Positions 1 through 23,122 of a stretch of DNA of 23,122 bases are shown here, in pieces. The translations under genes and the position numbers were made by a program. Source of the DNA: a virus (lineage: Duplodnaviria; Heunggongvirae; Uroviricota; Caudoviricetes); the IMG/VR virus record IMGVR_UViG_2690316210_000010, positions 1-23,122 of that record; one strand, 5' to 3'. Under the pieces are notes generated by a model that was not told the DNA's origin, did no database searches, and was given only the letters and a program-made list of their open reading frames with translations. Each line of letters opens with the position of its first letter. Position 1 is the stretch's first letter.

Positions 1-235
1 ATTCAGCATCCCAGGAATCGAGGGCAGGGCGGGGTATACCAGGTTTATCCTCGCAGACAATAAATTTATAAGCGCAGTCCTGAGCAGCCGGATAATGTTC
101 CAGGAATTGCCAGTGAAATTTTGCGCGGGCGCGGCGTTCGTCGCCGGCTTCAATGGCAGTGGCTACAGGTTTAGCGCCTTCTTCTTTTGTTGCCTTTTCG
201 TCCGGAATGGCGGCGCAAATAAAGACTTTACTCAT
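1..235 (-). CDS. Prophage early-left-operon hypothetical protein, 5' portion only (gene runs off the window start); paralog of 8697..9095, possibly YdfE-like by position
   Basis: Minus-strand ATG at 233-235; about 88% nucleotide identity to 8866-9095; encodes the N-terminus MSKVFICAAIPDEQ... by paralogy. Family not recognised. Confidence 0.5.
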   Translation of the reverse strand, partial: MSKVFICAAIPDEKATKEEGAKPVATAIEAGDERRARAKFHWQFLEHYPAAQDCAYKFIVCEDKPGIPRPALDSWDAE

Positions 236-328
236 TTTGTTTTAACCTCATTACAGATTTAAGGGTGAACAAATCCCTGCCATTGCTGGCATATAAAAAT
301 GAAACCGGATATTTATTACGTGGCTGCT

Positions 329-520
329 TTAAAGACCTGCCGGGACTTCTTTATTATCCTGGTGAATGATTTTATCAACCGGATAACAGTTACCGGGAAT
401 TTTCTGTTCAGCTGCAGCAGCCACGCATTCTTTCATGGAGTTGTATACTCCGGTAACCAGTTCAGCTGGTTCGCCCGTATTAAGAATAACGGTCAGAACG
501 AGTGCAAATGCTGTATTCAT
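329..520 (-). CDS. Small membrane/secreted protein immediately downstream of dicB (YdfD-like by position and length, 63 aa)
   Basis: Start chosen at MNTAFALV (ATG 518-520) overlapping the dicB stop in an ATGA motif, AAGGA Shine-Dalgarno upstream; hydrophobic N-terminus; paralog of 9191..9379. Confidence 0.5.
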   Translation of the reverse strand: MNTAFALVLTVILNTGEPAELVTGVYNSMKECVAAAAEQKIPGNCYPVDKIIHQDNKEVPAGL

Positions 521-705
521 CGCCAGCATCCTTTTTGCATCAGACGCAAACGAGCCAGCATTGAAACAATGCATATTTTATTTAATGACTCCCGTTCGTG
601 TTTTCTCTTGTTAATGGCATCTTCAGTAAATACAGGGTTACTGATAGTGACACCAATTTCAAAACAACCTTCAGACGTATTAACGTTTGGTAATAACGTT
701 TCCAT
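517..705 (-). CDS. dicB: Cell division inhibitor DicB (62 aa)
   Basis: Translation METLLPNVNTSEGCFEIGVTISNPVFTEDAINKRK... matches my recollection of E. coli Qin DicB; GAGGA Shine-Dalgarno upstream; sits downstream of a DicF-like sRNA as in the K-12 dicB operon. Confidence 0.8.
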   Translation of the reverse strand: METLLPNVNTSEGCFEIGVTISNPVFTEDAINKRKHERESLNKICIVSMLARLRLMQKGCWR

Positions 706-715
706 TATCGCGTCC

Positions 716-1273
716 TCAACAATGAATTTTGAGTAATTGCTCTACAGTCATATTTTTAATTGCGCCCCGGTTAACAAGAGTCCATCCCTGTTCTTCCAGA
801 TAAAACCGGAAAGTCTCCATGGTACAGACCCGTGCGCCATCAGGAACGGTTTCGGTGAATCTGATGTTGCCGCGTTCGTCGAAGTGAACAACCAGGGTGC
901 GGCCATCGCCTGGAATTATTTTGTCAGTGGGTGGGGTGTTATTCTGGCGCAGTTCGGCCTCCATGCGATCGAACTCAGCAATGTAGGCTTCTTTAAATGC
1001 AGCGGCTTTTTTGCCAGTGAATCCCATCACCAGGAAAACGAAGCCGTTTTTGGTGATTTGGTACATCGGGCGTTTTTCGCCTTTGGCGTCAGTGTAGGTG
1101 ACGTCCTCAAAATTGAGGGCGTTAAATTCAGGTGAGCATTCAGTATTTGCGATGGCACGTAACACATTGTCGTGACGCTTGCCAAAGAACTCTGCGATCG
1201 CAATAGACGTAGTGACAGCGCGACCATTTTCGATGGTTACGTCAGGGTGAGAAAGGGCAGGGATAGTAGCCAT
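716..1273 (-). CDS. Rha-family phage regulatory protein (antirepressor-like)
   Basis: Start set at MATIPALSHPDVTIENGRAVTTSIAIAEFFGKRHDNVLRAI with GAGGA Shine-Dalgarno; this N-terminal motif is typical of Rha/ORF6N proteins. The ORF track extends to 1570 but that extension overlaps the conserved DicF-flanking repeat. Gene is absent at the equivalent position of P2. Confidence 0.65.
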   Translation of the reverse strand: MATIPALSHPDVTIENGRAVTTSIAIAEFFGKRHDNVLRAIANTECSPEFNALNFEDVTYTDAKGEKRPMYQITKNGFVFLVMGFTGKKAAAFKEAYIAEFDRMEAELRQNNTPPTDKIIPGDGRTLVVHFDERGNIRFTETVPDGARVCTMETFRFYLEEQGWTLVNRGAIKNMTVEQLLKIHC

Positions 1274-1512
1274 GATGGCATCCTCGAGTGATAAGTTAAT
1301 TAACTCACCACCGAGGTTTTCCACGACCATAAGGGTGGTGAGACGTACAGGGGTGGAAATACCGGTCACTCGAGAACCCGGCCAGTCTTGCGACTGCCCT
1401 GCACATCCCACCATAATTTGAATGGAGCTGTGCATTACGCATAAAAAAACCGCTTCAGCGCGGCTATGCGCTCGAGTAACGTTCGGGTTTCCACGCCCGG
1501 CACCCGTTTTAT

Positions 1513-1810
1513 AAGGTGCAGGTGCACTATAATTCCACCCGTTCTGGTTTTCAATAGCTACATTCAACATTTTCTCTTTCCTTTCATCACCGAAGTGAAC
1601 TTTGTTGATGCGGTGCCTGGTGCCTCCAGGTGACGTTAACCAGTTAACAATTAACGCCGGATACAGGGAAACCCATAACCACCCGATACGGGGGAACTAA
1701 TCGCTTTTTAACTGTGCCGCGTGCGCTGAGCCGCATTCACCGCATCACAAAATTCACTTTAAAAAGGGCGGACATCAGCCAGCAATTAAACCGATGCCGC
1801 CAACTGGTAC
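1513..1810. repeat. Direct repeat copy 1 (~300 bp: dicF-dicB intergenic region plus DicF-like gene); near-identical to 3599..3895
   Basis: Visible alignment of 1513-1806 with 3599-3890 with only a few mismatches, diverging at the DicF 5' end; a third, more diverged copy lies at 9590-9800. Confidence 0.8.
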
Positions 1811-1816
1811 TTCACA
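1761..1816 (-). ncRNA. DicF-family sRNA variant (P0)
   Basis: Minus-strand sequence ends ...GGCGGCAUCGGUUUAAUUGCUGGCUGAUGUCCGCCCUUUUU, keeping the DicF GGCGG..CCGCC terminator and U-tail, but the 5' and internal sequence differ from canonical DicF. Ends are approximate. Confidence 0.4.
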
Positions 1817-1879
1817 CAGCAATGTCGTTATTTACAACCGGAGGCGCACTCCCACCATTTAAATTTAACAGACAAGACC

Positions 1880-2517
1880 GGTGATGCTGCCAACTTACTG
1901 ATTTAGTGTATGATGGTGTTTTTGAGGTGCTCCAGTGGCTTCTGTTTCTATCAGCTGTCCCTCCTGTTCAGCTACTGACGGGGTGGTGCGTAACGGCAAA
2001 AGCACTGCCGGACATCAGCGCTATCTCTGCTCTCACTGCCGTAAAACATGGCAACTGCAGTTCACTTACACCGCTTCTCAACCCGGTACGCACCAGAAAA
2101 TCATTGATATGGCCATGAATGGCGTTGGATGCCGGGCAACTGCACGCATTATGGGCGTTGGCCTCAACACGATTTTACGTCACTTAAAAAACTCAGGCCG
2201 CAGTCGGTAACCTCGCGCATACAGCCGGGCAGTGACGTCATCGTCTGCGCGGAAATGGACGAACAGTGGGGCTATGTCGGGGCTAAATCGCGCCAGCGCT
2301 GGCTGTTTTACGCGTATGACAGTCTCCGGAAGACGGTTGTTGCGCACGTATTCGGTGAACGCACTATGGCGACGCTGGGGCGTCTTATGAGCCTGCTGTC
2401 ACCCTTTGACGTGGTGATATGGATGACGGATGGCTGGCCGCTGTATGAATCCCGCCTGAAGGGAAAGCTGCACGTAATCAGCAAGCGATATACGCAGCGA
2501 ATTGAGCGGCATAACCT
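1880..2517 (+). mobile_element. IS1, 3'-truncated (left inverted repeat through mid-insB)
   Basis: Begins with the IS1 terminal repeat GGTGATGCTGCCAACTTACTGATTTAGTGTATGATGG; insA and insB recognisable; IS1 sequence stops after ...GAGCGGCATAACCT, where IS3-family sequence takes over. Confidence 0.85.
1935..2210 (+). CDS. insA: IS1 InsA
   Basis: 91-aa translation [42 protein letters not shown]... matches IS1 InsA. Confidence 0.9.
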
Positions 2518-2701
2518 TTTAGGACAATGGGTTACCGCCGCCAGAAAAGGGCTCGGTACTCCTGGTTCCCGCACGGTGGCTGAACTGGAATCTGAAATTC
2601 TGCAACTGCGTAAGGCGTTAAATGAAGCTCGCCTTGAGCGAGATATATTAAAAAAAGCAACAGCGTATTTTGCACAGGAGTCGCTGAAAAATACGCGTTA
2701 A
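2129..2701 (+). pseudogene. insB: Chimeric ORF: IS1 InsB (first ~129 aa) fused in frame to the C-terminal ~60 aa of an IS3-family OrfA
   Basis: Translation follows InsB up to ...[14 protein letters not shown], then continues [60 protein letters not shown], a typical IS3-family OrfA C-terminus. Confidence 0.75.
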
Positions 2702-3598
2702 TCGAACAATGGCGACAACAATTTCCCATTGAAGCGATGTGTCAGGTATTTGGTGTATCCAGGAGCGGTTATTACAACTGGGTACAGCATGAACCCTCAG
2801 ACAGAAAACAAAGTGATGAGCGGCTAAAACTGGAGATTAAGGTGGCACATATCCGCACTCGCGAAACATATGGAACCCGGCGGCTCCAGACGGAGCTGGC
2901 AGAGAATGGCATCATCGTTGGTCGTGACCGACTGGCACGTCTTCGTAAGGAGCTAAGGCTACGCTGTAAGCAGAAACGCAAGTTCAGAGCGACTACGAAC
3001 TCGAACCACAATCTGCCAGTTGCGCCAAATCTGCTGAACCAGACGTTCGCTCCTACAGCACCAAATCAGGTCTGGGTGGCGGACCTGACGTATGTTGCCA
3101 CACAGGAGGGATGGTTGTACCTCGCTGGCATCAAAGATGTTTATACGTGCGAAATTGTCGGCTACGCCATGGGAGAGCGCATGACAAAAGAGCTGACAGG
3201 TAAAGCCCTGTTTATGGCGCTCAGGAGCCAGCGCCCACCTGCCGGGCTAATCCACCACTCTGATCGAGGTTCACAGTACTGCGCATACGATTACCGGGTC
3301 ATACAGGAGCAGTCTGGTCTGAAAACATCAATGTCGCGTAAAGGTAACTGTTACGACAACGCTCCGATGGAAAGCTTCTGGGGAACGCTGAAAAATGAGA
3401 GCCTGAGCCACTATCGTTTTAATAACCGGGATGAAGCCATCTCAGTAATACGGGAATACATTGAGATTTTCTACAATCGTCAGCGTCGTCACTCTCGTCT
3501 GGGGAATATCTCCCCGGCAGCCTTCAGGGAAAAATATCATCAGATGGCTGCTTAAAAAAAGAACAAATGGTAGTGTCCGCTATTGCCAGTACACCTCA
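2518..3598 (+). mobile_element. IS3-family element (IS600/IS911-like), 5'-truncated, right end intact
   Basis: OrfA C-terminus, A-run slippery motif near 2647-2656, OrfB in the -1 frame, and a right end ...GTACACCTCA consistent with an IS3-family terminal CA. Exact IS name not verified. Confidence 0.7.
2737..3555 (+). CDS. IS3-family transposase OrfB (DDE catalytic domain); coordinates are the first in-frame ATG, natively expressed by -1 frameshift from OrfA
   Basis: 272-aa translation with DDE-transposase hallmarks (...WVADLTYV..., ...HHSDRGSQYCA..., ...CYDNAPMESFWGTLK...). Confidence 0.8.
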   Translation: MCQVFGVSRSGYYNWVQHEPSDRKQSDERLKLEIKVAHIRTRETYGTRRLQTELAENGIIVGRDRLARLRKELRLRCKQKRKFRATTNSNHNLPVAPNLLNQTFAPTAPNQVWVADLTYVATQEGWLYLAGIKDVYTCEIVGYAMGERMTKELTGKALFMALRSQRPPAGLIHHSDRGSQYCAYDYRVIQEQSGLKTSMSRKGNCYDNAPMESFWGTLKNESLSHYRFNNRDEAISVIREYIEIFYNRQRRHSRLGNISPAAFREKYHQMAA

Positions 3599-3895
3599 AA
3601 GGTGCAGGTGCACTATAATTCCACCCGTTCTGGTTTTCAATAGCTACATTCAACATTTTCTCTTTCCTTTCATCACCGAAGTGAACTTTGTTGATGCGGT
3701 GCCTGGTGCCTCCAGGTGACGTTAACCAGTTAACAATTAACGCCGGATACAGGGAAACCCATAACCACCCGATACGGGGGAACTAATCGCTTTTTAACTG
3801 TGCCGCGTGCGCTGAGCCGCATTCACCGCATCACAAAATTCACTTTAAAAAGGGCGGACATCAGCCAGCAATGAAACTGATGCCGCCAAAGGTAC
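3599..3895. repeat. Direct repeat copy 2 (dicF-dicB intergenic region plus DicF-like gene), abutting the IS3-family right end
   Basis: Aligns with 1513-1810; starts immediately after the IS3-family terminus. Confidence 0.8.
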
Positions 3896-5566: not shown

Positions 5567-6067
5567 TTAGGCGCGACGGCCTTTTTGTGCAGCTAACCAC
5601 CGCGCAACCGTACGATCCATTGATTCTTTTTTATCTTTCATCTCCTGAAGCATGTGTTCTTGATCTTCTTTCGGAAAAGCTCTGAACGTATGGATTAAAT
5701 CTCGTTCCATCGGCTCTACGGCAAACGGTAGTTCATCCTCTGTTTGTTCTGTGTCTGCTGGTAATGCGACTATGTTATCTTGCTGTGGTTCTCGACAATA
5801 CATCCTTGCAATTTGCAGCAAATCTACCATGTCTGGCCTGATTGACTCAGGGGGAACTTTCAGTAAGCCAGCAAACTTTAGTACAGCCTCAAGGTTTAGT
5901 GGGGTTTGACCATTTAGGTAGTGACTTACCGCCCCTTGTGTTGAAAACCCCATAATTTCCGCCGCACGTTCCTGAGTCAATCCCAACTGAGATTTCTTTG
6001 CCATCCAGATTTCTTTCAGTCTTCTGGCGGCGTTGAGGTCGGTGTCTGACAATGATTTTCTTTTCAT
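5567..6067 (-). CDS. CI-like HTH repressor without a recognisable S24 peptidase domain
   Basis: Start chosen at MKRKSLSDTDLNAARRLKEIWMAKKSQLGLTQERAAEIMGF..., which resembles the lambda CI N-terminal domain; the C-terminus shows no Ser/Lys peptidase motif; divergent from the Cro-like gene. Confidence 0.7.
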   Translation of the reverse strand: MKRKSLSDTDLNAARRLKEIWMAKKSQLGLTQERAAEIMGFSTQGAVSHYLNGQTPLNLEAVLKFAGLLKVPPESIRPDMVDLLQIARMYCREPQQDNIVALPADTEQTEDELPFAVEPMERDLIHTFRAFPKEDQEHMLQEMKDKKESMDRTVARWLAAQKGRRA

Positions 6068-6080
6068 ACATCCAATTCTA

Positions 6081-6146
6081 ATAAGATTGCTAATCACTTT
6101 GAAATAGCATCACTATTTACTTTTAAAAATAACAGTGCTATTAATT
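6081..6146. promoter_or_regulatory. OR-like operator/promoter region between the divergent repressor and Cro-like genes (P1)
   Basis: Operator repeats AATAGCATCACTATT (6103-6117) and AATAACAGTGCTATT (6129-6143); candidate rightward promoter -35 TTTACT (6116-6121), 17-bp spacer, -10 TATTAA (6139-6144). Confidence 0.45.
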
Positions 6147-9742: not shown

Positions 9743-9800
9743 AAAAAGGGCGGCAGAGCAGTCACGGAGTAAAACTGATACCGCCAAATGTCACCAGAAA
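9743..9800 (-). ncRNA. dicF: DicF sRNA (canonical-type)
   Basis: Minus strand reads UUUCUGGUGACAUUUGGCGGUAUCAGUUUUACUCCGUGACUGCUCUGCCGCCCUUUUU, matching my recollection of E. coli DicF apart from about one base; located between the ydfA-like/variable genes and dicB as in Qin. Confidence 0.8.
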
Positions 9801-11204: not shown

Positions 11205-11624
11205 CTATGATGCGTTTTGTGCTTTCTTTTTACGGATTTCTTCGTAGATCATATTGTAATACTGTTTTTTCTCTTCAAGAGTTTTTAATAATTTATCCGC
11301 TTCACTTTCTGGCAGTTCGTCTAAGAGATCTAAAAAAATACGTTGTCGTGGCGTTAGAACCCTTGTTTCATAACTGGAGGCTGTGTTCGTTGATGATGAA
11401 ACGATACCATCCATCCATCCCCGGGGTAACCCAAAGGACTCTTCGATAATCTCCACCATATCATCAGCGATCCGTTTTTTTCCCTTTTTCCCCTCTGGGT
11501 ACAACATTCTTGATACATAAGAAGGCTCGCGCCCGATCTTTCTGGCCACGTTAACCGCTTTACCATCGCATTTCTCATCACGAATTTTGATGAGTTGCTG
11601 TCGTCTAAATTCATATTTGTCCAT
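11205..11624 (-). CDS. HTH repressor of the P2 immunity region (RacR/DicA-like position)
   Basis: Start chosen at MDKYEFRRQQLIKIRDEKCDGKAVNVARKIGREPSYVSRML... (HTH); divergent from the Cro-like gene; flanked by operator-like repeats. Confidence 0.6.
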   Translation of the reverse strand: MDKYEFRRQQLIKIRDEKCDGKAVNVARKIGREPSYVSRMLYPEGKKGKKRIADDMVEIIEESFGLPRGWMDGIVSSSTNTASSYETRVLTPRQRIFLDLLDELPESEADKLLKTLEEKKQYYNMIYEEIRKKKAQNAS

Positions 11625-11701
11625 AGGTAAATAATAGATGCGATTACCGCAAGGTAAACAACCTGTGGGTATTGACATTTGTTTACCTGTGGGTATTCTT
11701 T
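11623..11701. promoter_or_regulatory. OR-like operators and candidate rightward promoter for the P2 Cro-like gene
   Basis: Repeated TGGGTA-containing half-sites (ACCTGTGGGTAT twice, CATAGGTAAAT); -35 TTGACA (11673-11678), 16-bp spacer, -10 TATTCT (11695-11700). Confidence 0.45.
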
Positions 11702-16226: not shown

Positions 16227-16453
16227 TTTTATGGGGCACCTTTCTGATTGATTTCATATTGGCGAGGTAAGTAGAATGACTGCGGGTGCTTGAGGCTATC
16301 TGCTTCAGGCATGAACACCAAAAGGCAGATAGAGAAAAGCCCCAGTTAACATTACGCGTCCGGCAAGACGCTTAACATTAATCTGAGGCCAATTTCATGC
16401 TTTGCACATGTAGGTTAGCCTCTTACATGCCGAAAGGCAAGGAGAAGCAGGCT

Positions 16454-16609
16454 ATGAAGCAGCAAAAGGCGATGTTAATCGCCCTGATCGTCATCTGTTT
16501 AACCGTCATAGTGACGGCACTGGTAACGAGGAAAGACCTCTGTGAGGTACGAATCCGAACCGGCCAGACGGAGGTCGCTGTCTTCGTAGACTACGAATCC
16601 AGGAAGTAA
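16454..16609 (+). CDS. hokD: Hok-family type I toxin (HokD/RelF-like); overlapping upstream Mok-like frame begins at 16397
   Basis: MKQQKAMLIALIVICLTVIVTALVTRKDLCEVRIRTGQTEVAVF... matches Hok/RelF; GGAG Shine-Dalgarno. Confidence 0.75.
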   Translation: MKQQKAMLIALIVICLTVIVTALVTRKDLCEVRIRTGQTEVAVFVDYESRK

Positions 16610-17146: not shown

Positions 17147-17184
17147 ACTCCTGCTGTGTAACACCGTGCCACCGGAGAAAGCCG

Positions 17185-17784
17185 ATGGCACATATACAAC
17201 TGGTCAAACAAACCTCTTCCGGATTACTTCTCCCGGCGACGCCGGAGAGTTGCGATTTTCTGCATCAAATCAAAATAGGTGAGTGGATACACGCAGACTT
17301 TAAGCGTGTGTGTAACTACGCATTCCACAAGCGTTTTTTCAAACTCCTGCAACTGGGTTTCGATTACTGGACTCCGGTCGGTGGGGCGATCACGCCTCGC
17401 GAACGAAAACTGGTGTCCGGTTTCGTTGATTACCTGTGTGAATCAGTAGGCCGGGAACATACGCCAGCTCTGAGCGAAGCCGCAGAGCAATATCTGAATA
17501 CAGTTGCGACACGCAGAACCAGTGATACGGCATTGCTAAAGTCGTTTGAGGCTTTCCGCGAGTGGGTAGCCATTCAGGCCGGATTTTACACCGAGCATTT
17601 TTATCCGGACGGTAGCCGTGGGTGTCGGGCGAAATCTATCGCGTTTGCGAATATGGACGAAACCGAGTTTCAGCAGGTTTATAAATCTGTTCTGAATGTG
17701 CTGTGGAACTGGATTCTGTTCCGTAAATTTTCCTCTCCGGAACAAGTCGAAAATGTGGCCGCGCAGCTGCTGGAGTTTGCGTAA
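17185..17784 (+). CDS. DUF1367-like prophage protein, tandem copy A
   Basis: GGAG Shine-Dalgarno; MAHIQLVKQTSSGLLLPATPESCDFLHQIK...; stop overlaps the next gene start (TAATG). Family assignment from memory. Confidence 0.55.
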   Translation: MAHIQLVKQTSSGLLLPATPESCDFLHQIKIGEWIHADFKRVCNYAFHKRFFKLLQLGFDYWTPVGGAITPRERKLVSGFVDYLCESVGREHTPALSEAAEQYLNTVATRRTSDTALLKSFEAFREWVAIQAGFYTEHFYPDGSRGCRAKSIAFANMDETEFQQVYKSVLNVLWNWILFRKFSSPEQVENVAAQLLEFA

Positions 17785-18074
17785 TGGTGGATTTACGTAA
17801 AGCGGCGCGGGGGCAGATGTGCACCGTCAGAATTCCTGGCTACTGCAATCACGATCCGGAAACGTCTGTGCTGGCGCATTACCGACTGGCGGGAACGTGC
17901 GGAACAGCGATAAAGCCACACGATATGCAGGCAGCGATTGCCTGTAGCTCGTGCCACGATTTAATCGACGGGCGGGTAAAAACCAGCGATTACACCAAAG
18001 AAGAATTACGCCTGATGCATGCAGAAGGTGTTTTTCGCACACAAGAAATCTGGAGAAAGGAGGGATATTTATGA
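17784..18074 (+). CDS. YbcO-like (DUF1364) zinc-binding protein, copy A
   Basis: 96 aa with four paired Cys (C..C...C..C) and position before Q as in DLP12 ybcO; identical in copies B and C. Confidence 0.55.
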
Positions 18075-18448
18075 TTTACCCAACGAATACAGGAAAAAGC
18101 GGAGAACACCTTCGTCTCACCACGCTGGAAAGTGTCTGGATTCAGGGAAAACTACGTATGTGGGGGCGCTGGTCGTATATTGGTGGCGGTAAGACGGGGA
18201 ATATGTTTAACCTGATGTTGACCTCTAAAAAGCTGACAAAAACGGCAATTAACGAGGCGCTCCGGAGGATGAAAAAAGCAGGTCTGAACAAGTCTGAACT
18301 TGCTGCCGCCATGAAGCAGATTAAAGAACTCCAGCGCCTGCTCGGCAAGAAAACGATGGAAAATGAACTCCTCAAAGAAGCCGTTGAATATGGACGGGCA
18401 AAAAAGTGGATAGCGCACGCGCCCTTATTGCCCGGGGATGGGGAGTAA
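18071..18448 (+). pseudogene. Truncated Q-like antiterminator (first ~74 aa) fused in frame to the C-terminal part of IS2 InsC
   Basis: [16 protein letters not shown]...NKSEL, then [48 protein letters not shown] (IS2 InsC C-terminus); junction at the shared 10-mer TCTGAACTTG (18293-18302). Confidence 0.75.
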
Positions 18449-19322
18449 GCTTAGTCAGCCGTTGTCTCCGGGTGTCGCGTGCGCAGTTGCACGTCATTCT
18501 CAGACGAACCGATGACTGGATGGATGGCCGCCGCAGTCGTCACACTGATGATACGGATGTGCTTCTCCGTATACACCATGTTATCGGAGAGCTGCCCACG
18601 TATGGTTATCGTCGGGTATGGGCGCTGCTTCGCAGACAGGCAGAACTTGATGGTATGCCTGCGATCAATGCCAAACGTGTTTACCGGATCATGCGCCAGA
18701 ATGCGCTGTTGCTTGAGCGAAAACCTGCTGTACCGCCATCGAAACGGGCACATACAGGCAGAGTGGCCGTGAAAGAAAGCAATCAGCGATGGTGCTCTGA
18801 CGGGTTCGAGTTCTGCTGTGATAACGGAGAGAGACTGCGTGTCACGTTCGCGCTGGACTGCTGTGATCGTGAGGCACTGCACTGGGCGGTGACTACCGGC
18901 GGCTTCAACAGTGAAACAGTACAGGACGTCATGCTGGGAGCGGTGGAACGCCGCTTCGGCAACGATCTTCCGTCGTCTCCAGTGGAGTGGCTGACGGATA
19001 ATGGTTCATGCTACCGGGCTAATGAAACACGCCAGTTCGCCCGGATGTTGGGACTTGAACCGAAGAACACGGCGGTGCGGAGTCCGGAGAGTAACGGAAT
19101 AGCAGAGAGCTTCGTGAAAACGATAAAGCGTGACTACATCAGTATCATGCCCAAACCAGACGGGTTAACGGCAGCAAAGAACCTTGCAGAGGCGTTCGAG
19201 CATTATAACGAATGGCATCCGCATAGTGCGCTGGGTTATCGCTCGCCACGGGAATATCTGCGGCAGCGGGCTTGTAATGGGTTAAGTGATAACAGATGTC
19301 TGGAAATATAGGGGCAAATCCA
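18293..19322 (+). mobile_element. IS2, 5'-truncated (mid-insC to right end ...GGGGCAAATCCA)
   Basis: insC 3' part, insD and the right terminus are recognisable; the left ~300 bp of IS2 is absent. Confidence 0.85.
18406..19311 (+). CDS. insD: IS2 transposase InsD (natively expressed as an InsCD frameshift product)
   Basis: 301-aa translation ...[32 protein letters not shown]... with DDE motifs. Confidence 0.85.
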
Positions 19323-19364
19323 ACGGGCTGAACACCCATTCTACTGCGCCAGCGGAGAACTACG

Positions 19365-19964
19365 ATGGCGCATATACAACTGATCAAACAAACCTCTTCC
19401 GGATTACTTCTCCCGGCGACGCCGGAGAGTTGCGATTTTCTGCATCAAATCAAAATAGGTGAGTGGATACACGCAGACTTTAAGCGTGTGTGTAACTACG
19501 CATTCCACAAGCGTTTTTTCAAACTCCTGCAACTGGGATTCGATTACTGGACTCCGGTCGGTGGGGCGATCACGCCTCGCGAACGAGAACTGCTGTCTGG
19601 TTTCGTTGATTACCTGTGCGAATCAGTAGGTCGGGAACATACGCCAGCTCTGAGCGAAGCCGCAGAGCAATATCTGAATACAGTTGCGACACGCAGAACC
19701 AGTGATACGGCATTGCTAAAGTCGTTTGAGGCTTTCCGCGAGTGGGTAGCCATTCAGGCCGGATTTTACACCGAGCATTTTTATCCGGACGGTAGCCGTG
19801 GGTGTCGGGCGAAATCTATCGCGTTTGCGAATATGGACGAAACCGAGTTTCAGCAGGTTTATAAATCTGTTCTGAATGTGCTGTGGAACTGGATTCTGTT
19901 CCGTAAATTTTCCTCTCCGGAACAAGTCGAAAATGTGGCCGCGCAGCTGCTGGAGTTTGCGTAA
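19365..19964 (+). CDS. DUF1367-like prophage protein, copy B (mosaic of A-type and C-type sequence)
   Basis: About 99% identical to copy A, but carries C-type substitutions at the 5' end (LIKQ, RERELLSGF). Confidence 0.55.
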   Translation: MAHIQLIKQTSSGLLLPATPESCDFLHQIKIGEWIHADFKRVCNYAFHKRFFKLLQLGFDYWTPVGGAITPRERELLSGFVDYLCESVGREHTPALSEAAEQYLNTVATRRTSDTALLKSFEAFREWVAIQAGFYTEHFYPDGSRGCRAKSIAFANMDETEFQQVYKSVLNVLWNWILFRKFSSPEQVENVAAQLLEFA

Positions 19965-20254
19965 TGGTGGATTTACGTAAAGCGGCGCGGGGGCAGATGT
20001 GCACCGTCAGAATTCCTGGCTACTGCAATCACGATCCGGAAACGTCTGTGCTGGCGCATTACCGACTGGCGGGAACGTGCGGAACAGCGATAAAGCCACA
20101 CGATATGCAGGCAGCGATTGCCTGTAGCTCGTGCCACGATTTAATCGACGGGCGGGTAAAAACCAGCGATTACACCAAAGAAGAATTACGCCTGATGCAT
20201 GCAGAAGGTGTTTTTCGCACACAAGAAATCTGGAGAAAGGAGGGATATTTATGA
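19964..20254 (+). CDS. YbcO-like (DUF1364) protein, copy B
   Basis: Identical translation to copies A and C. Confidence 0.55.
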
Positions 20255-21492
20255 TTTACCCAACGAATACAGGAAAAAGCGGAGAACACCTTCGTCTCAC
20301 CACGCTGGAAAGTGTCTGGATTCAGGGAAAACTACGTATGTGGGGGCGCTGGTCGTATATTGGTGGCGGTAAGACGGGGAATATGTTTAACCTGATGTTG
20401 ACCTCTAAAAAGCTGACAAAAACGGCAATTAACGAGGCGCTCCGGAGGATGAAAAAAGCAGGTCTGAACAAGTCTGAACTTGCTGCCGCCATGAAGCAGA
20501 TTAAAGAACTCCAGCGCCTGCTCGGCAAGAAAACGATGGAAAATGAACTCCTCAAAGAAGCCGTTGAATATGGACGGGCAAAAAAGTGGATAAACGCACG
20601 CGCCCTTATTGCCCGGGGATGGGGAGTAAGCTTAGTCAGCCGTTGTCTCCGGGTGTCGCGTGCGCAGTTGCACGTCATTCTCAGACGAACCGATGACTGG
20701 ATGGATGGCCGCCGCAGTCGTCACACTGATGATACGGATGTGCTTCTCCGTATACACCATGTTATCGGAGAGCTGCCCACGTATGGTTATCGTCGGGTAT
20801 GGGCGCTGCTTCGCAGACAGGCAGAACTTGATGGTATGCCTGCGATCAATGCCAAACGTGTTTACCGGATCATGCGCCAGAATGCGCTGTTGCTTGAGCG
20901 AAAACCTGCTGTACCGCCATCGAAACGGGCACATACAGGCAGAGTGGCCGTGAAAGAAAGCAATCAGCGATGGTGCTCTGACGGGTTCGAGTTCTGCTGT
21001 GATAACGGAGAGAGACTGCGTGTCACGTTCGCGCTGGACTGCTGTGATCGTGAGGCACTGCACTGGGCGGTGACTACCGGCGGCTTCAACAGTGAAACAG
21101 TACAGGACGTCATGCTGGGAGCGGTGGAACGCCGCTTCGGCAACGATCTTCCGTCGTCTCCAGTGGAGTGGCTGACGGATAATGGTTCATGCTACCGGGC
21201 TAATGAAACACGCCAGTTCGCCCGGATGTTGGGACTTGAACCGAAGAACACGGCGGTGCGGAGTCCGGAGAGTAACGGAATAGCAGAGAGCTTCGTGAAA
21301 ACGATAAAGCGTGACTACATCAGTATCATGCCCAAACCAGACGGGTTAACGGCAGCAAAGAACCTTGCAGAGGCGTTCGAGCATTATAACGAATGGCATC
21401 CGCATAGTGCGCTGGGTTATCGCTCGCCACGGGAATATCTGCGGCAGCGGGCTTGTAATGGGTTAAGTGATAACAGATGTCTGGAAATATAG
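20251..21492 (+). pseudogene. Q N-terminal fragment fused in frame to IS2 InsC C-terminus and InsD (single 413-aa chimeric ORF)
   Basis: Same Q::IS2 junction as copy A (20473-20482), plus one extra nucleotide near 20593 (TGGATAAACGCACG versus TGGATAGCGCACG in copy A) that merges the InsC and InsD frames. Confidence 0.7.
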
Positions 21493-21503
21493 GGGCAAAT
21501 CCA
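20473..21503 (+). mobile_element. IS2, 5'-truncated, second copy
   Basis: Same structure and right end as 18293..19322. Confidence 0.85.
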
Positions 21504-21545
21504 ACGGGCTGAACACCCATTCTACTGCGCCAGCGGAGAACTACG

Positions 21546-22145
21546 ATGGCGCATATACAACTGATCAAACAAACCTCTTCCGGATTACTTCTCCCGGCGA
21601 CGCCGGAGAGTTGCGATTTTCTGCATCAAATCAAAACAGGTGAGTGGATACACGCAGACTTTAAGCGTGTGCGTAACTACGCATTCCACAAGCGTTTTTT
21701 CAAACTCCTGCAACTGGGATTCGATTACTGGACTCCGGTCGGTGGGGCGATCACGCCTCGCGAACGAGAACTGCTGTCTGGTTTCGTTGATTACCTGTGC
21801 GAATCAGTAGGTCGGGAACATACGCCAGCTCTGAGCGAAGCCGCAGAGCAATATCTGAATACAGTTGCGACACGCAGAACCCGGGATACGGCATTGCTAA
21901 AGTCGTTTGAGGCTTTTCGCGAGTGGGTAACCATTCAGGCTGGATTTTACACCGAACATTTTTATCCGGACGGTAGCCGCGGGCGTCGGGCAAAATCCAT
22001 CGCTTTTGCGAATATGGACGAAACCGAGTTTCAGCAGGTTTATAAATCTGTTCTGAATGTGCTGTGGAACTGGATTCTGTTCCGTAAATTTTCCTCTCCG
22101 GAACAAGTCGAAAATGTGGCCGCGCAGCTGCTGGAGTTTGCGTAA
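21546..22145 (+). CDS. DUF1367-like prophage protein, copy C (most diverged)
   Basis: Several substitutions relative to A and B (KTGEW, RVRNY, TRDTALL, WVTIQ, RGRRAKS). Confidence 0.55.
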   Translation: MAHIQLIKQTSSGLLLPATPESCDFLHQIKTGEWIHADFKRVRNYAFHKRFFKLLQLGFDYWTPVGGAITPRERELLSGFVDYLCESVGREHTPALSEAAEQYLNTVATRRTRDTALLKSFEAFREWVTIQAGFYTEHFYPDGSRGRRAKSIAFANMDETEFQQVYKSVLNVLWNWILFRKFSSPEQVENVAAQLLEFA

Positions 22146-22435
22146 TGGTGGATTTACGTAAAGCGGCGCGGGGGCAGATGTGCACCGTCAGAATTCCTGG
22201 CTACTGCAATCACGATCCGGAAACGTCTGTGCTGGCGCATTACCGACTGGCGGGAACGTGCGGAACAGCGATAAAGCCACACGATATGCAGGCAGCGATT
22301 GCCTGTAGCTCGTGCCACGATTTAATCGACGGGCGGGTAAAAACCAGCGATTACACCAAAGAAGAATTACGCCTGATGCATGCAGAAGGTGTTTTTCGCA
22401 CACAAGAAATCTGGAGAAAGGAGGGATATTTATGA
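22145..22435 (+). CDS. YbcO-like (DUF1364) protein, copy C
   Basis: Identical translation to copies A and B. Confidence 0.55.
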   Translation: MVDLRKAARGQMCTVRIPGYCNHDPETSVLAHYRLAGTCGTAIKPHDMQAAIACSSCHDLIDGRVKTSDYTKEELRLMHAEGVFRTQEIWRKEGYL

Positions 22436-22986
22436 TTTACCCAACGAATACAGGAAAAAGCGGAGAACACCTTCGTCTCACCACGCTGGAAAGTGTCTGG
22501 ATTCAGGGAAAACTACGTATGTGGGGGCGCTGGTCGTATATTGGTGGCGGTAAGACGGGGAATATGTTTAACCTGATGTTGACCTCTAAAAAGCTGACAA
22601 AAACGGCAATTAACGAGGCGCTCCGGAGGATGAAAAAAGCAGGTCTGAACAAGTCTGAACTTGAGGCTTTTTTGCGGGATATGATTAACGGTAAGCAAAA
22701 GAGCTGGCTGGCGCATTGTACTGATGCAGAGGCGTTATGTATTGATCGGGTCATAAGTGAGGTGCTGGCAGAGCATCCAGGATTGATTAGCGTCCTTCGG
22801 CAACGGTATGAGGGGCGGGGGATGACCAAACGCAAAATGGCTGAACTGCTGAATGATGCACACCCGAAATGGAGTTTAAGAACCTGTGAAAGACGCATTG
22901 AGCATTGGCTAAAGGTGGCAGAATTTATTTTGTACAAACCAATGGTTATGGCTTTTGGTATAGAGAAAAAAGTTATTGCTTTTTGA
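22432..22986 (+). CDS. Putative late-gene antiterminator Q-like protein, intact copy (184 aa)
   Basis: ATG 22432 with AGGAGG Shine-Dalgarno; position after the YbcO-like gene and before a terminator-containing intergenic region; assignment is by synteny, not by recognised sequence. Confidence 0.5.
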   Translation: MIYPTNTGKSGEHLRLTTLESVWIQGKLRMWGRWSYIGGGKTGNMFNLMLTSKKLTKTAINEALRRMKKAGLNKSELEAFLRDMINGKQKSWLAHCTDAEALCIDRVISEVLAEHPGLISVLRQRYEGRGMTKRKMAELLNDAHPKWSLRTCERRIEHWLKVAEFILYKPMVMAFGIEKKVIAF

Positions 22987-23062
22987 CGTAAAAACTGCTT
23001 CAATTCTTGTACGCTTCGCAAAGCTGTACCGCGAGGCGAATAGCAGACATGGACATTTGAAA

Positions 23063-23088
23063 GAGCCCGCTTTATGCGGGTTTTTTTA
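23063..23088 (+). terminator. Rho-independent terminator downstream of Q (candidate tR'-like terminator of the late leader transcript)
   Basis: Hairpin CCCGC-TTTAT-GCGGG followed by TTTTTTT. Confidence 0.6.
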
Positions 23089-23122
23089 TACCTGAAAAAC
23101 GGCACAGGACGTTAAACGTGCT

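Follow-up and report, generated by a model that had tools for sequence, protein, structure and literature searches.

A probable RNA-gated antirepressor cassette between a DicF-like RNA and dicB in a Qin-like prophage

The stretch of DNA analysed here, referred to as the window (23,122 nucleotides; positions 1 to 23,122 of the IMG/VR virus record IMGVR_UViG_2690316210_000010, Caudoviricetes), contains three related segments, P0, P1 and P2, with all or part of a dicBF-type operon. In P0, a gene of the Rha family stands directly upstream of the division-inhibition gene dicB. Read along the minus strand, P0 comprises a DicF-type RNA, a conserved spacer, rha with its leader, dicB and a DUF1482 gene (Table 1), and the DicF-type RNA, spacer, DicB and DUF1482 gene identify the operon as Qin-like. 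A preliminary description of this DNA had assigned 716–1273 to a Rha-family protein. Domain searches agree, with matches to Phage_pRha (PF09669; E 2e-32, 112 bits against a cutoff of 29.9) and to NCBIfam TIGR02681 (123 bits; cutoff 45.95).

The limits of the segment that sets P0 apart from P2 were taken from a blastn comparison of window 1–1900 with the remainder of the stretch, since MAFFT, run globally on P0 and P2, misplaced the gap. P0 601–731 aligns with P2 9460–9590 and P0 1596–1803 with P2 9582–9787, leaving ~866 bp extra in P0. The P2 spacer picks up again 18–26 bp upstream of the dicB ATG, in keeping with the closeness of spacer and dicB claimed earlier, and rha does sit between the DicF-type RNA and dicB as described. 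The extra segment holds more than rha, namely a promoter, an IsrK-like RNA and a C4-like RNA in front of it. The statement that rha lies in the division-inhibition operon is thus right as to position, but because the cassette has its own promoter and RNAs, rha is not merely an extra cistron of that operon.

Table 1. Coordinates of the features at the P0 locus and of the cassette remnant in P1 (window positions)
Feature	Position	Strand	Evidence or content
Exonuclease gene fragment	1–235	minus	
DUF1482 ydfD-like gene	329–574	minus	Pfam DUF1482
dicB, 62 aa	517–705	minus	Pfam DicB PF05358, 7e-38
rha coding sequence, 185 aa	716–1273	minus	Pfam and NCBIfam
11-nt copy CAAAATTCATT of the end of the spacer-helix 3´ arm	731–721	minus	Motif search, junction comparison, folds
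Whole cassette (promoter, IsrK-like RNA, C4-like RNA, rha)	732–1597	minus	P0-versus-P2 blastn
b2, downstream C4 target UCACUCGAG	1291–1283	minus	Exact 9-nt complement of b´
a2, downstream C4 target GUGGAAA	1324–1318	minus	Exact complement of a´
C4-type antisense RNA	1418–1331	minus	Rfam RF01695, 76.7 bits (gathering 45)
Intrinsic terminator of IsrK	1465–1443	minus	Terminator scan
b1, upstream C4 target, IsrK linker	1477–1471	minus	7-nt complement of b´
a1, upstream C4 target, loop of IsrK hairpin 2	1494–1488	minus	
IsrK-type RNA	1519–1443	minus	Rfam RF01394, 61.2 bits (gathering 50)
Sigma-70 promoter TTGAAA, 17 nt, TATAGT	1554–1526	minus	Consensus scan, 10/12 matches
Conserved spacer, weak STnc100 match	1593–1765	minus	Rfam RF02076, 31.6 bits, below gathering
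DicF-like RNA variant	1766–1816	minus	Rfam DicF 28.6 bits (gathering 48)
P1 cassette remnant	3599–3683	minus	Left end, promoter, IsrK nt 1–7

The promoter ends 7 bases before the 5´ end of the IsrK-like RNA, the first base of which is the predicted start site (~1519), and both the -35 and the -10 hexamer are kept in an alignment of six divergent relatives. Rfam families exist for both RNAs, C4 and IsrK (PMC2864571). The IsrK-type RNA of P0 combines a score above the gathering threshold with an intrinsic terminator and a promoter of its own, and a weak match to RF03163 (c4-a1b1) at 1480–1532 overlaps its 5´ half. The C4-type RNA also scores above its threshold. It is predicted to fold into three helices and has paired targets on both sides, the downstream pair lying over the ribosome binding site. 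In the predicted fold, its element a´ (UUUCCAC) is part of the 3´ single strand and b´ (CUCGAGUGA) forms the loop of hairpin 2; the downstream partner of b´ runs into the Shine-Dalgarno sequence of rha (GAGGA), 7 nt before ATG 1273. The same C4 variant is present in Shigella flexneri SFBU1023 and E. coli ECMA0423, where the locus is only ~90% identical to the window.

Conservation of these pairings was assessed in relatives. A pattern scan of IMG/VR gave 120 further loci, and 57 distinct leaders were aligned. RNAduplex was uninformative on whole RNAs, because the leader pairs with stem sequences of C4 as well. In its place, complements were searched for element by element and covariation was counted; a2 and b2 were scored by script, as the a2 columns of the MAFFT alignment of the 57 leaders were inconsistent. 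Across these leaders, six of the seven a1-a´ pairs (99.2% paired) and eight of the nine b1-b´ pairs are changed on both sides, and the structure as a whole is 95.3% paired compared with ~40% in slid controls. None of 500 shuffles matched the observed covariation values. Each of the three C4 helices is 99.6–100% paired with compensatory changes. On the downstream side, a2 is a perfect 7/7 complement of a´ in 55 of 57 relatives, which between them have 13 variants of a´, and b2 is a perfect 9/9 complement of b´ in 43 of 44 relatives with 24 variants of b´; its end lies 9–14 nt before the start codon. Complementarity is higher for cognate than for non-cognate pairs. In a six-way alignment of the window, Gifsy-1, a Stx2a phage, mEp460, ST64B and an E. 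coli chromosome, the a and b elements vary jointly with their partners, and the promoter hexamers, the Shine-Dalgarno sequence and the ATG are constant. The a1/a´/a2 triplets include GUGGAAA/UUUCCAC/GUGGAAA, UUGGCGU/ACGCCAA/UUGGCGU, UUCUCAC/GUGAGAA/UUCUCAC and UUGCUAC/GUAGCAA/UUGCUAC. Judged by sequence complementarity, the window's copy fully obeys the specificity principle of the c4 immunity RNAs of phages P1 and P7. Across the IMG/VR loci, the 13 a´ and 24 b´ variants are combined in many ways.

The reading frame of rha is open well beyond its start, from ATG 1570 to 716 (284 aa). The long form is annotated in relatives by the Prokaryotic Genome Annotation Pipeline (PGAP), and phage records extend the open reading frame (ORF) further. 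This raises the question of whether the real product is a 284-aa “Ash-Rha” protein, with the RNA matches falling inside a coding region. The conceptual N-terminus of the long ORF (1274–1570, minus strand) matches the Pfam family PF10554, “Ash” (2.5e-16, 60.5 bits), the frame stays open over more than 250 nt in roughly half of 54 leader variants, and a plausible Shine-Dalgarno sequence can be read before ATG 1570. We nevertheless regard a protein of this length as highly improbable. In 26 Rha-type relatives, the entropy at the three codon positions is 0.44/0.37/0.96 over the first 110 rha codons, whereas in the leader (IsrK, C4 and post-C4) it is flat at 0.43–0.63, and the third-position excess is seen from ATG 1273 onwards only. 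Changes in the leader instead compensate one another at the RNA level. Transcription of the cassette starts downstream of ATG 1570, and the arrangement GAGG-7 nt-ATG 1273 is kept in six of six aligned relatives. On these sequence features, the start of rha is ATG 1273: the coordinates of the preliminary description are correct and improve on the public annotations, which carry the locus with a wrong start in hundreds of genomes.

The match to PF10554 has a parallel in phage P4 (8168–8584), where the same family matches the old 137-aa “cI ORF” over the CI (C4-type) RNA, beside the seqA (IsrK-type) RNA. The P4 immunity factor is an RNA (PMC4825925), and the P4 epsilon protein belongs to PF25738, not to PF10554. 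Since the match lies over RNA genes both here and in P4, where the immunity factor is known to be RNA, PF10554 looks like a translated RNA locus, and the Ash family appears to be the conceptual translation of IsrK and C4 RNA genes. Published work has taken “Ash” for a protein domain or for epsilon (PMC8951638; PMC8628076), and the family has served as a marker for the P4 epsilon protein. Papers that use it in either way would be affected, and the long “Rha/Ash” ORFs would represent a widespread annotation error.

The protein encoded from ATG 1273 has an N-terminal pRha domain (aa 21–105) and a C-terminal domain (~aa 122–185). The latter is homologous to the C-terminus of Gifsy-1 AnrP (60-residue profiles; hhalign 95.7%, E 1e-8). 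Expression of AnrP raises transcription of the antQ operon and induces the Gifsy-1 prophage, and IsrK supplied in trans switches on its translation (PMC4825925). The N-terminal modules encoded behind C4 leaders are interchangeable and include pRha (window, Stx2a phages), ORF6N (Gifsy-1 AnrP) and AntA, with several C-terminal modules shuffled among the three kinds of protein. In PHROGs, Rha falls among “transcriptional regulator” and “anti-repressor” families, including PHROG 995. Indirectly, from its context, the domain in common with AnrP and the PHROG labels, Rha is probably an antirepressor, and the earlier classification of the gene as antirepressor-type is supported.

The segment 732–1597 as a whole is, in our view, probably an autonomous RNA-gated antirepressor cassette lying within the early-left operon, that of dicB, in a Qin-like prophage. 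The class is already known from the RNA-gated antirepressors of phage P1 immI, P4 CI and Gifsy-1 isrK-anrP. The scheme that follows takes RNA processing, Rho polarity, the activity and target of the antirepressor and the coupling to dicB from phage P1, P4 and Gifsy-1, and joins them to the RNA genes, promoter and terminator signals, folds, complementarity and covariation, start codon, domains and distribution found here. Transcripts from the cassette promoter would begin with the IsrK-type RNA and mostly stop at its terminator. Those reading through would carry the C4-type RNA followed by rha, and C4 would be processed out of them; in phage P1, C4 is released from its precursor by RNase P. Pairing of a´ and b´ with a2 and b2 in the rha leader would mask the Shine-Dalgarno sequence and leave rha untranslated, upon which Rho would probably halt transcription. 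If the short IsrK RNA with its decoys a1 and b1 accumulates, it would titrate C4 or re-fold the leader, and Rha would be made. Rha would most likely bind and inactivate a non-cleavable helix-turn-helix (HTH) prophage repressor. Repressors of the HTH type that have no peptidase domain form a class depending on antirepressors (PMC10448788), and the repressor beside the P1 remnant, with an HTH_3 domain and no S24 peptidase domain, fits the antirepressor reading. The immunity region of P1 (5063–6097, minus strand) encodes this 176-aa HTH_3 repressor at 5567–6097 and then a PaaA2/ParE toxin-antitoxin pair; the repressor of P2 lies at 11205–11678.

Several observations weigh against this interpretation. 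The P0 immunity region is missing, as IS1 (insertion sequence 1) cuts the prophage at 1880, and the cognate repressor may therefore not be nearby. No LexA box or obvious operator was found at the cassette promoter. The window's equivalent of the Gifsy-1 frame orf45 (AUG 1414) runs into rha with no stop before ATG 1273; Gifsy-1 has a separate upstream orf45, and the details of control may consequently differ. Full-length BLASTP of Rha against AnrP gives no significant match (E 0.018), and only the C-terminal domain is common to the two. The rhaC-type C-terminus co-occurs with diverse repressors and shows no clear link to one repressor family. Finally, family descriptions predict pRha to be a winged-helix DNA-binding domain, and we know of no Rha-family protein with such a C-terminus for which repressor binding has been demonstrated. 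A search by sequence found no relative of Rha in the PDB.

The same RNA gate might have another output: Rha may be a DNA-binding regulator of transcription or replication that controls promoters directly and does not bind a repressor. This would suit, besides the winged-helix prediction, the label of the best-matching PHROG families (“transcriptional regulator”) and the location of Rha genes beside replication genes in the rightward operon of mEp460, ST64B and Stx “Eru” phages. The same leader, however, drives AntA- and ORF6N-type proteins, among them the prophage-inducing AnrP, with which Rha shares its C-terminal domain, and C4-type control is classically attached to antirepressors, as in phage P1 immI. 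We hold direct promoter control to be unlikely, though worth keeping in mind. It may also be argued that the cassette is an inert relic without present function in a cryptic prophage riddled with insertion sequences (IS): IS1 interrupts P0, an IS3-family element has destroyed the copy in P1, and the window has several IS copies and an IS-containing tandem triplication. In P0, on the other hand, the promoter, terminator, C4 fold, a and b complementarity (which is perfect), rha ORF and dicB are all intact, and we consider a relic improbable, even more so than a DNA-binding Rha.

The antirepressor cassette can be compared with several characterized systems. Gifsy-1 isrK-orf45-anrP of Salmonella (Hershko-Shalev et al., 2016; PMC4825925) has the same succession of promoter, IsrK with terminator, C4-like RNA (STnc1160) and ~185-aa antirepressor gene, the same three-way covariation of the a and b elements and a homologous C-terminal protein domain. 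It differs in the N-terminal domain (ORF6N in AnrP, pRha in the window) and in the a and b specificities. A separate orf45, which starts at an AUG within the 5´ stem of C4 and stops ahead of the antirepressor start, couples translation there, whereas the window has none in the homologous frame; a 45-aa ORF in another frame (1442–1305) is found in the window, where the leader bears no coding signature. No isrJ follows in the window, and the Gifsy-1 locus lies downstream of Q, not in the early-left operon.

In immI of phages P1 and P7 (c4-icd-ant; Citron and Schuster, 1990; Riedel et al., 1993), C4 lies between a1b1 and a2b2, and a2b2 covers a ribosome binding site. The window shares with it an RF01695 C4 RNA with flanking targets, the regulation of an antirepressor and the presence of a cell-division inhibitor in the same unit. 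In phage P1, however, the masked site is that of icd, which is upstream of ant and overlaps it. In the window, unlike the icd arrangement, C4 (ending at 1331) is followed by rha (from 1273), whose own Shine-Dalgarno sequence is the C4 target, and dicB is downstream. No evidence was seen in the window for control of the promoter by an operator for a C1-type repressor. P4 immunity (CI RNA, seqA, seqC) has isrK-like (seqA) and C4-like (CI) RNAs in the same order, and a spurious ORF over both that is matched by PF10554, but its CI RNA prematurely terminates the replication operon and gates no adjacent antirepressor, the derepression protein epsilon being of another family.

With Qin dicBF and its antirepressor Rem (Ragunathan et al., 2023; PMC10448788) the window has in common the repressor, a ydfA-like gene, DicF-type RNA, spacer, dicB and ydfD-like gene, and in both cases, though for the window only probably, an antirepressor from a prophage relieves repression by a non-cleavable HTH protein. 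In K-12 Qin, by contrast, no gene intervenes between dicF and dicB, and Rem, a small protein that shows no relationship to Rha, is encoded at a distance of 3.6 kb and lacks C4-type RNA control (PMC10448788). Stx2a phages (e.g. Stx2a_F765 and PA2) have a Rha N-terminal domain 84–86% identical to that of the window, an isrK and C4 leader and the cassette in the leftward operon immediately before a small FtsZ-inhibitor gene; they differ in the C-terminal domain, in the a and b specificities, in having kil in place of dicB downstream and in lacking DicF upstream.

The dicB ATG follows the rha stop codon by 10 nt, the stop overlaps the dicB Shine-Dalgarno sequence (GAGGA), and no terminator appeared in a scan of the minus strand between rha and dicB (705–1273). 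Given the short gap and the lack of a terminator between the genes, dicB is probably co-expressed with Rha. A more tentative proposal, which we hold to be less likely than not, is that the cassette, by standing between the operon promoter and dicB, makes dicB itself subject to C4 and IsrK, the untranslated rha with Rho polarity being the off state and IsrK-triggered translation the on state, and that recurrence of the arrangement reflects a selected coupling of antirepression with a transient block of division. Recurrence as such is seen in three unrelated contexts, in which the same leader lies directly upstream of DicB, KilR or Kil, and phage P1 has its division inhibitor icd within immI. 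In Stx2a phages, the cassette is in the leftward operon just upstream of kil, and in Rac-like elements it precedes a KilR-type FtsZ inhibitor (NF008465, 161.8 bits). Other settings are the rightward operon of mEp460 and ST64B and, in Gifsy-1, the region after Q. The same isrK and C4 pair is found upstream of antirepressor genes in Gifsy-1, Stx2a phages, mEp460, ST64B and P4. Among IMG/VR loci (e.g. L049, L059, L019, L002 and L078), C4-gated cassettes are followed directly by DicB, a KilR-type FtsZ inhibitor or a Stx-phage Kil.

The preliminary description had the insertion in P0 only. Within the window this holds for the rha gene itself but not for the cassette, of which P1 keeps an IS-truncated remnant. 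As an evolutionary statement it is not supported: among 5426 complete E. coli genomes, at least 244 contain 80% or more of window 1–1900 in the same layout and with the same junctions, the locus being annotated with Rha, DicB, DUF1482 and exonuclease. The contiguous, cassette-free order DicF-spacer-dicB (the P2 form) is found in at least 4073 of the same genomes. A complete left arm is available in E. coli RMDEC465, consisting of an HTH repressor, RelBE, ydfA, ydfB, ydfC, the intact cassette and dicB; the repressor of that strain and the one encoded in P1 are 99.4% identical. Three IMG/VR loci (L010, L101 and L114) have a canonical DicF (61–76 bits) followed by IsrK, C4, Rha and dicB. In ~4–5% of complete E. 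coli genomes, i.e. a minority of E. coli and Shigella prophages, the toxic dicB gene lies downstream of a probable RNA-gated antirepressor module, and the model operon of K-12 has no such layer of control. We found no paper that names all three of Rha, antirepressor and dicB, nor one on the dicF-dicB position. Apart from the dicB setting and the correction of annotations, the locus is a routine example of lambdoid mosaicism.

The junctions of the cassette bear on its history. On the spacer side, the cassette adjoins the 3´ arm of the closing helix without a gap, and both junctions are identical in all six loci in which it lies between a DicF-type RNA and dicB. At its far end, the 11-nt copy CAAAATTCATT encodes the last residues of rha (KIHC and the stop) just before the dicB Shine-Dalgarno sequence. 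The same Rha ends in EQLLSIK and a stop in KilR contexts, where the same spacer precedes the cassette. The simplest history suggested by these sequences is that a spacer-cassette-kilR phage recombined once with a spacer-dicB phage, which would explain P0 and would make the P2 form the older one for the dicB operon. The final four codons of rha copy the end of the dicB-type spacer, and this junction anatomy favours insertion of the cassette into the dicB operon, as assumed in the preliminary description; we consider insertion rather likely, although it remains unproven.

The opposite polarity, with P0 ancestral and the P2/K-12 form generated by deletion between the 11–12-nt CAAARTTCAYT copies flanking the cassette, is a possible but less probable history. 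These copies do form an imperfect direct repeat (1594–1604 and 721–731), recombination between which yields exactly the P2 junction, and the cassette-bearing form spans dicB alleles that are only 61–65% identical and is accordingly old. The repeat, however, is the 3´ arm of the spacer closing helix, so that the copy at the end of rha is spacer sequence and not native to rha, and with the different Rha ending behind the same spacer-cassette block in KilR contexts a single recombination suffices. In addition, the cassette-free form is ~17 times commoner, and the Rfam STnc100 model spans the junction in that form.

The spacer (P0 1593–1765; P2 9575–9750, minus strand) folds into a multi-branched structure with a closing helix of ~21 bp (z-scores of -4.55 in P0 and -4.46 in P2), and the modelled fold makes it a plausible candidate RNase III substrate for DicF processing. 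Calling the upstream RNA dicF proved correct for P2, which has the only canonical DicF of the window (9748–9799, 77 bits), but not for P0, where the copy stays below the Rfam threshold, as does that of P1 (3852–3900, 38.8 bits). Both sub-threshold RNAs retain the terminator hairpin (1798–1761 in the scan of P0), and their 5´ part is unlike canonical DicF, possibly giving an altered target specificity. The 5´ ends of the P0 and P1 variants also differ from one another.

Window 3599–3895 in P1 is 98.7% identical to P0 1513–1810 by blastn, and an IS3-family element adjoins the cassette remnant at its broken end. The same IS end is found within rha in another IMG/VR locus (L038). Between P0 and P1 (window 1880–3598), a truncated IS1 copy starting at 1880 is joined to the IS3-family element ending at 3598. 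Elsewhere, the window has a hok/sok-type toxin-antitoxin locus at 16284–16609 (Rfam sok, 117 bits) and a tandem triplication at 17163–23100, in which a unit of ~2181 bp with DUF1367, a YbcO nuclease, a DUF1133 fragment and an IS3-family transposase is repeated at 95–100% identity.

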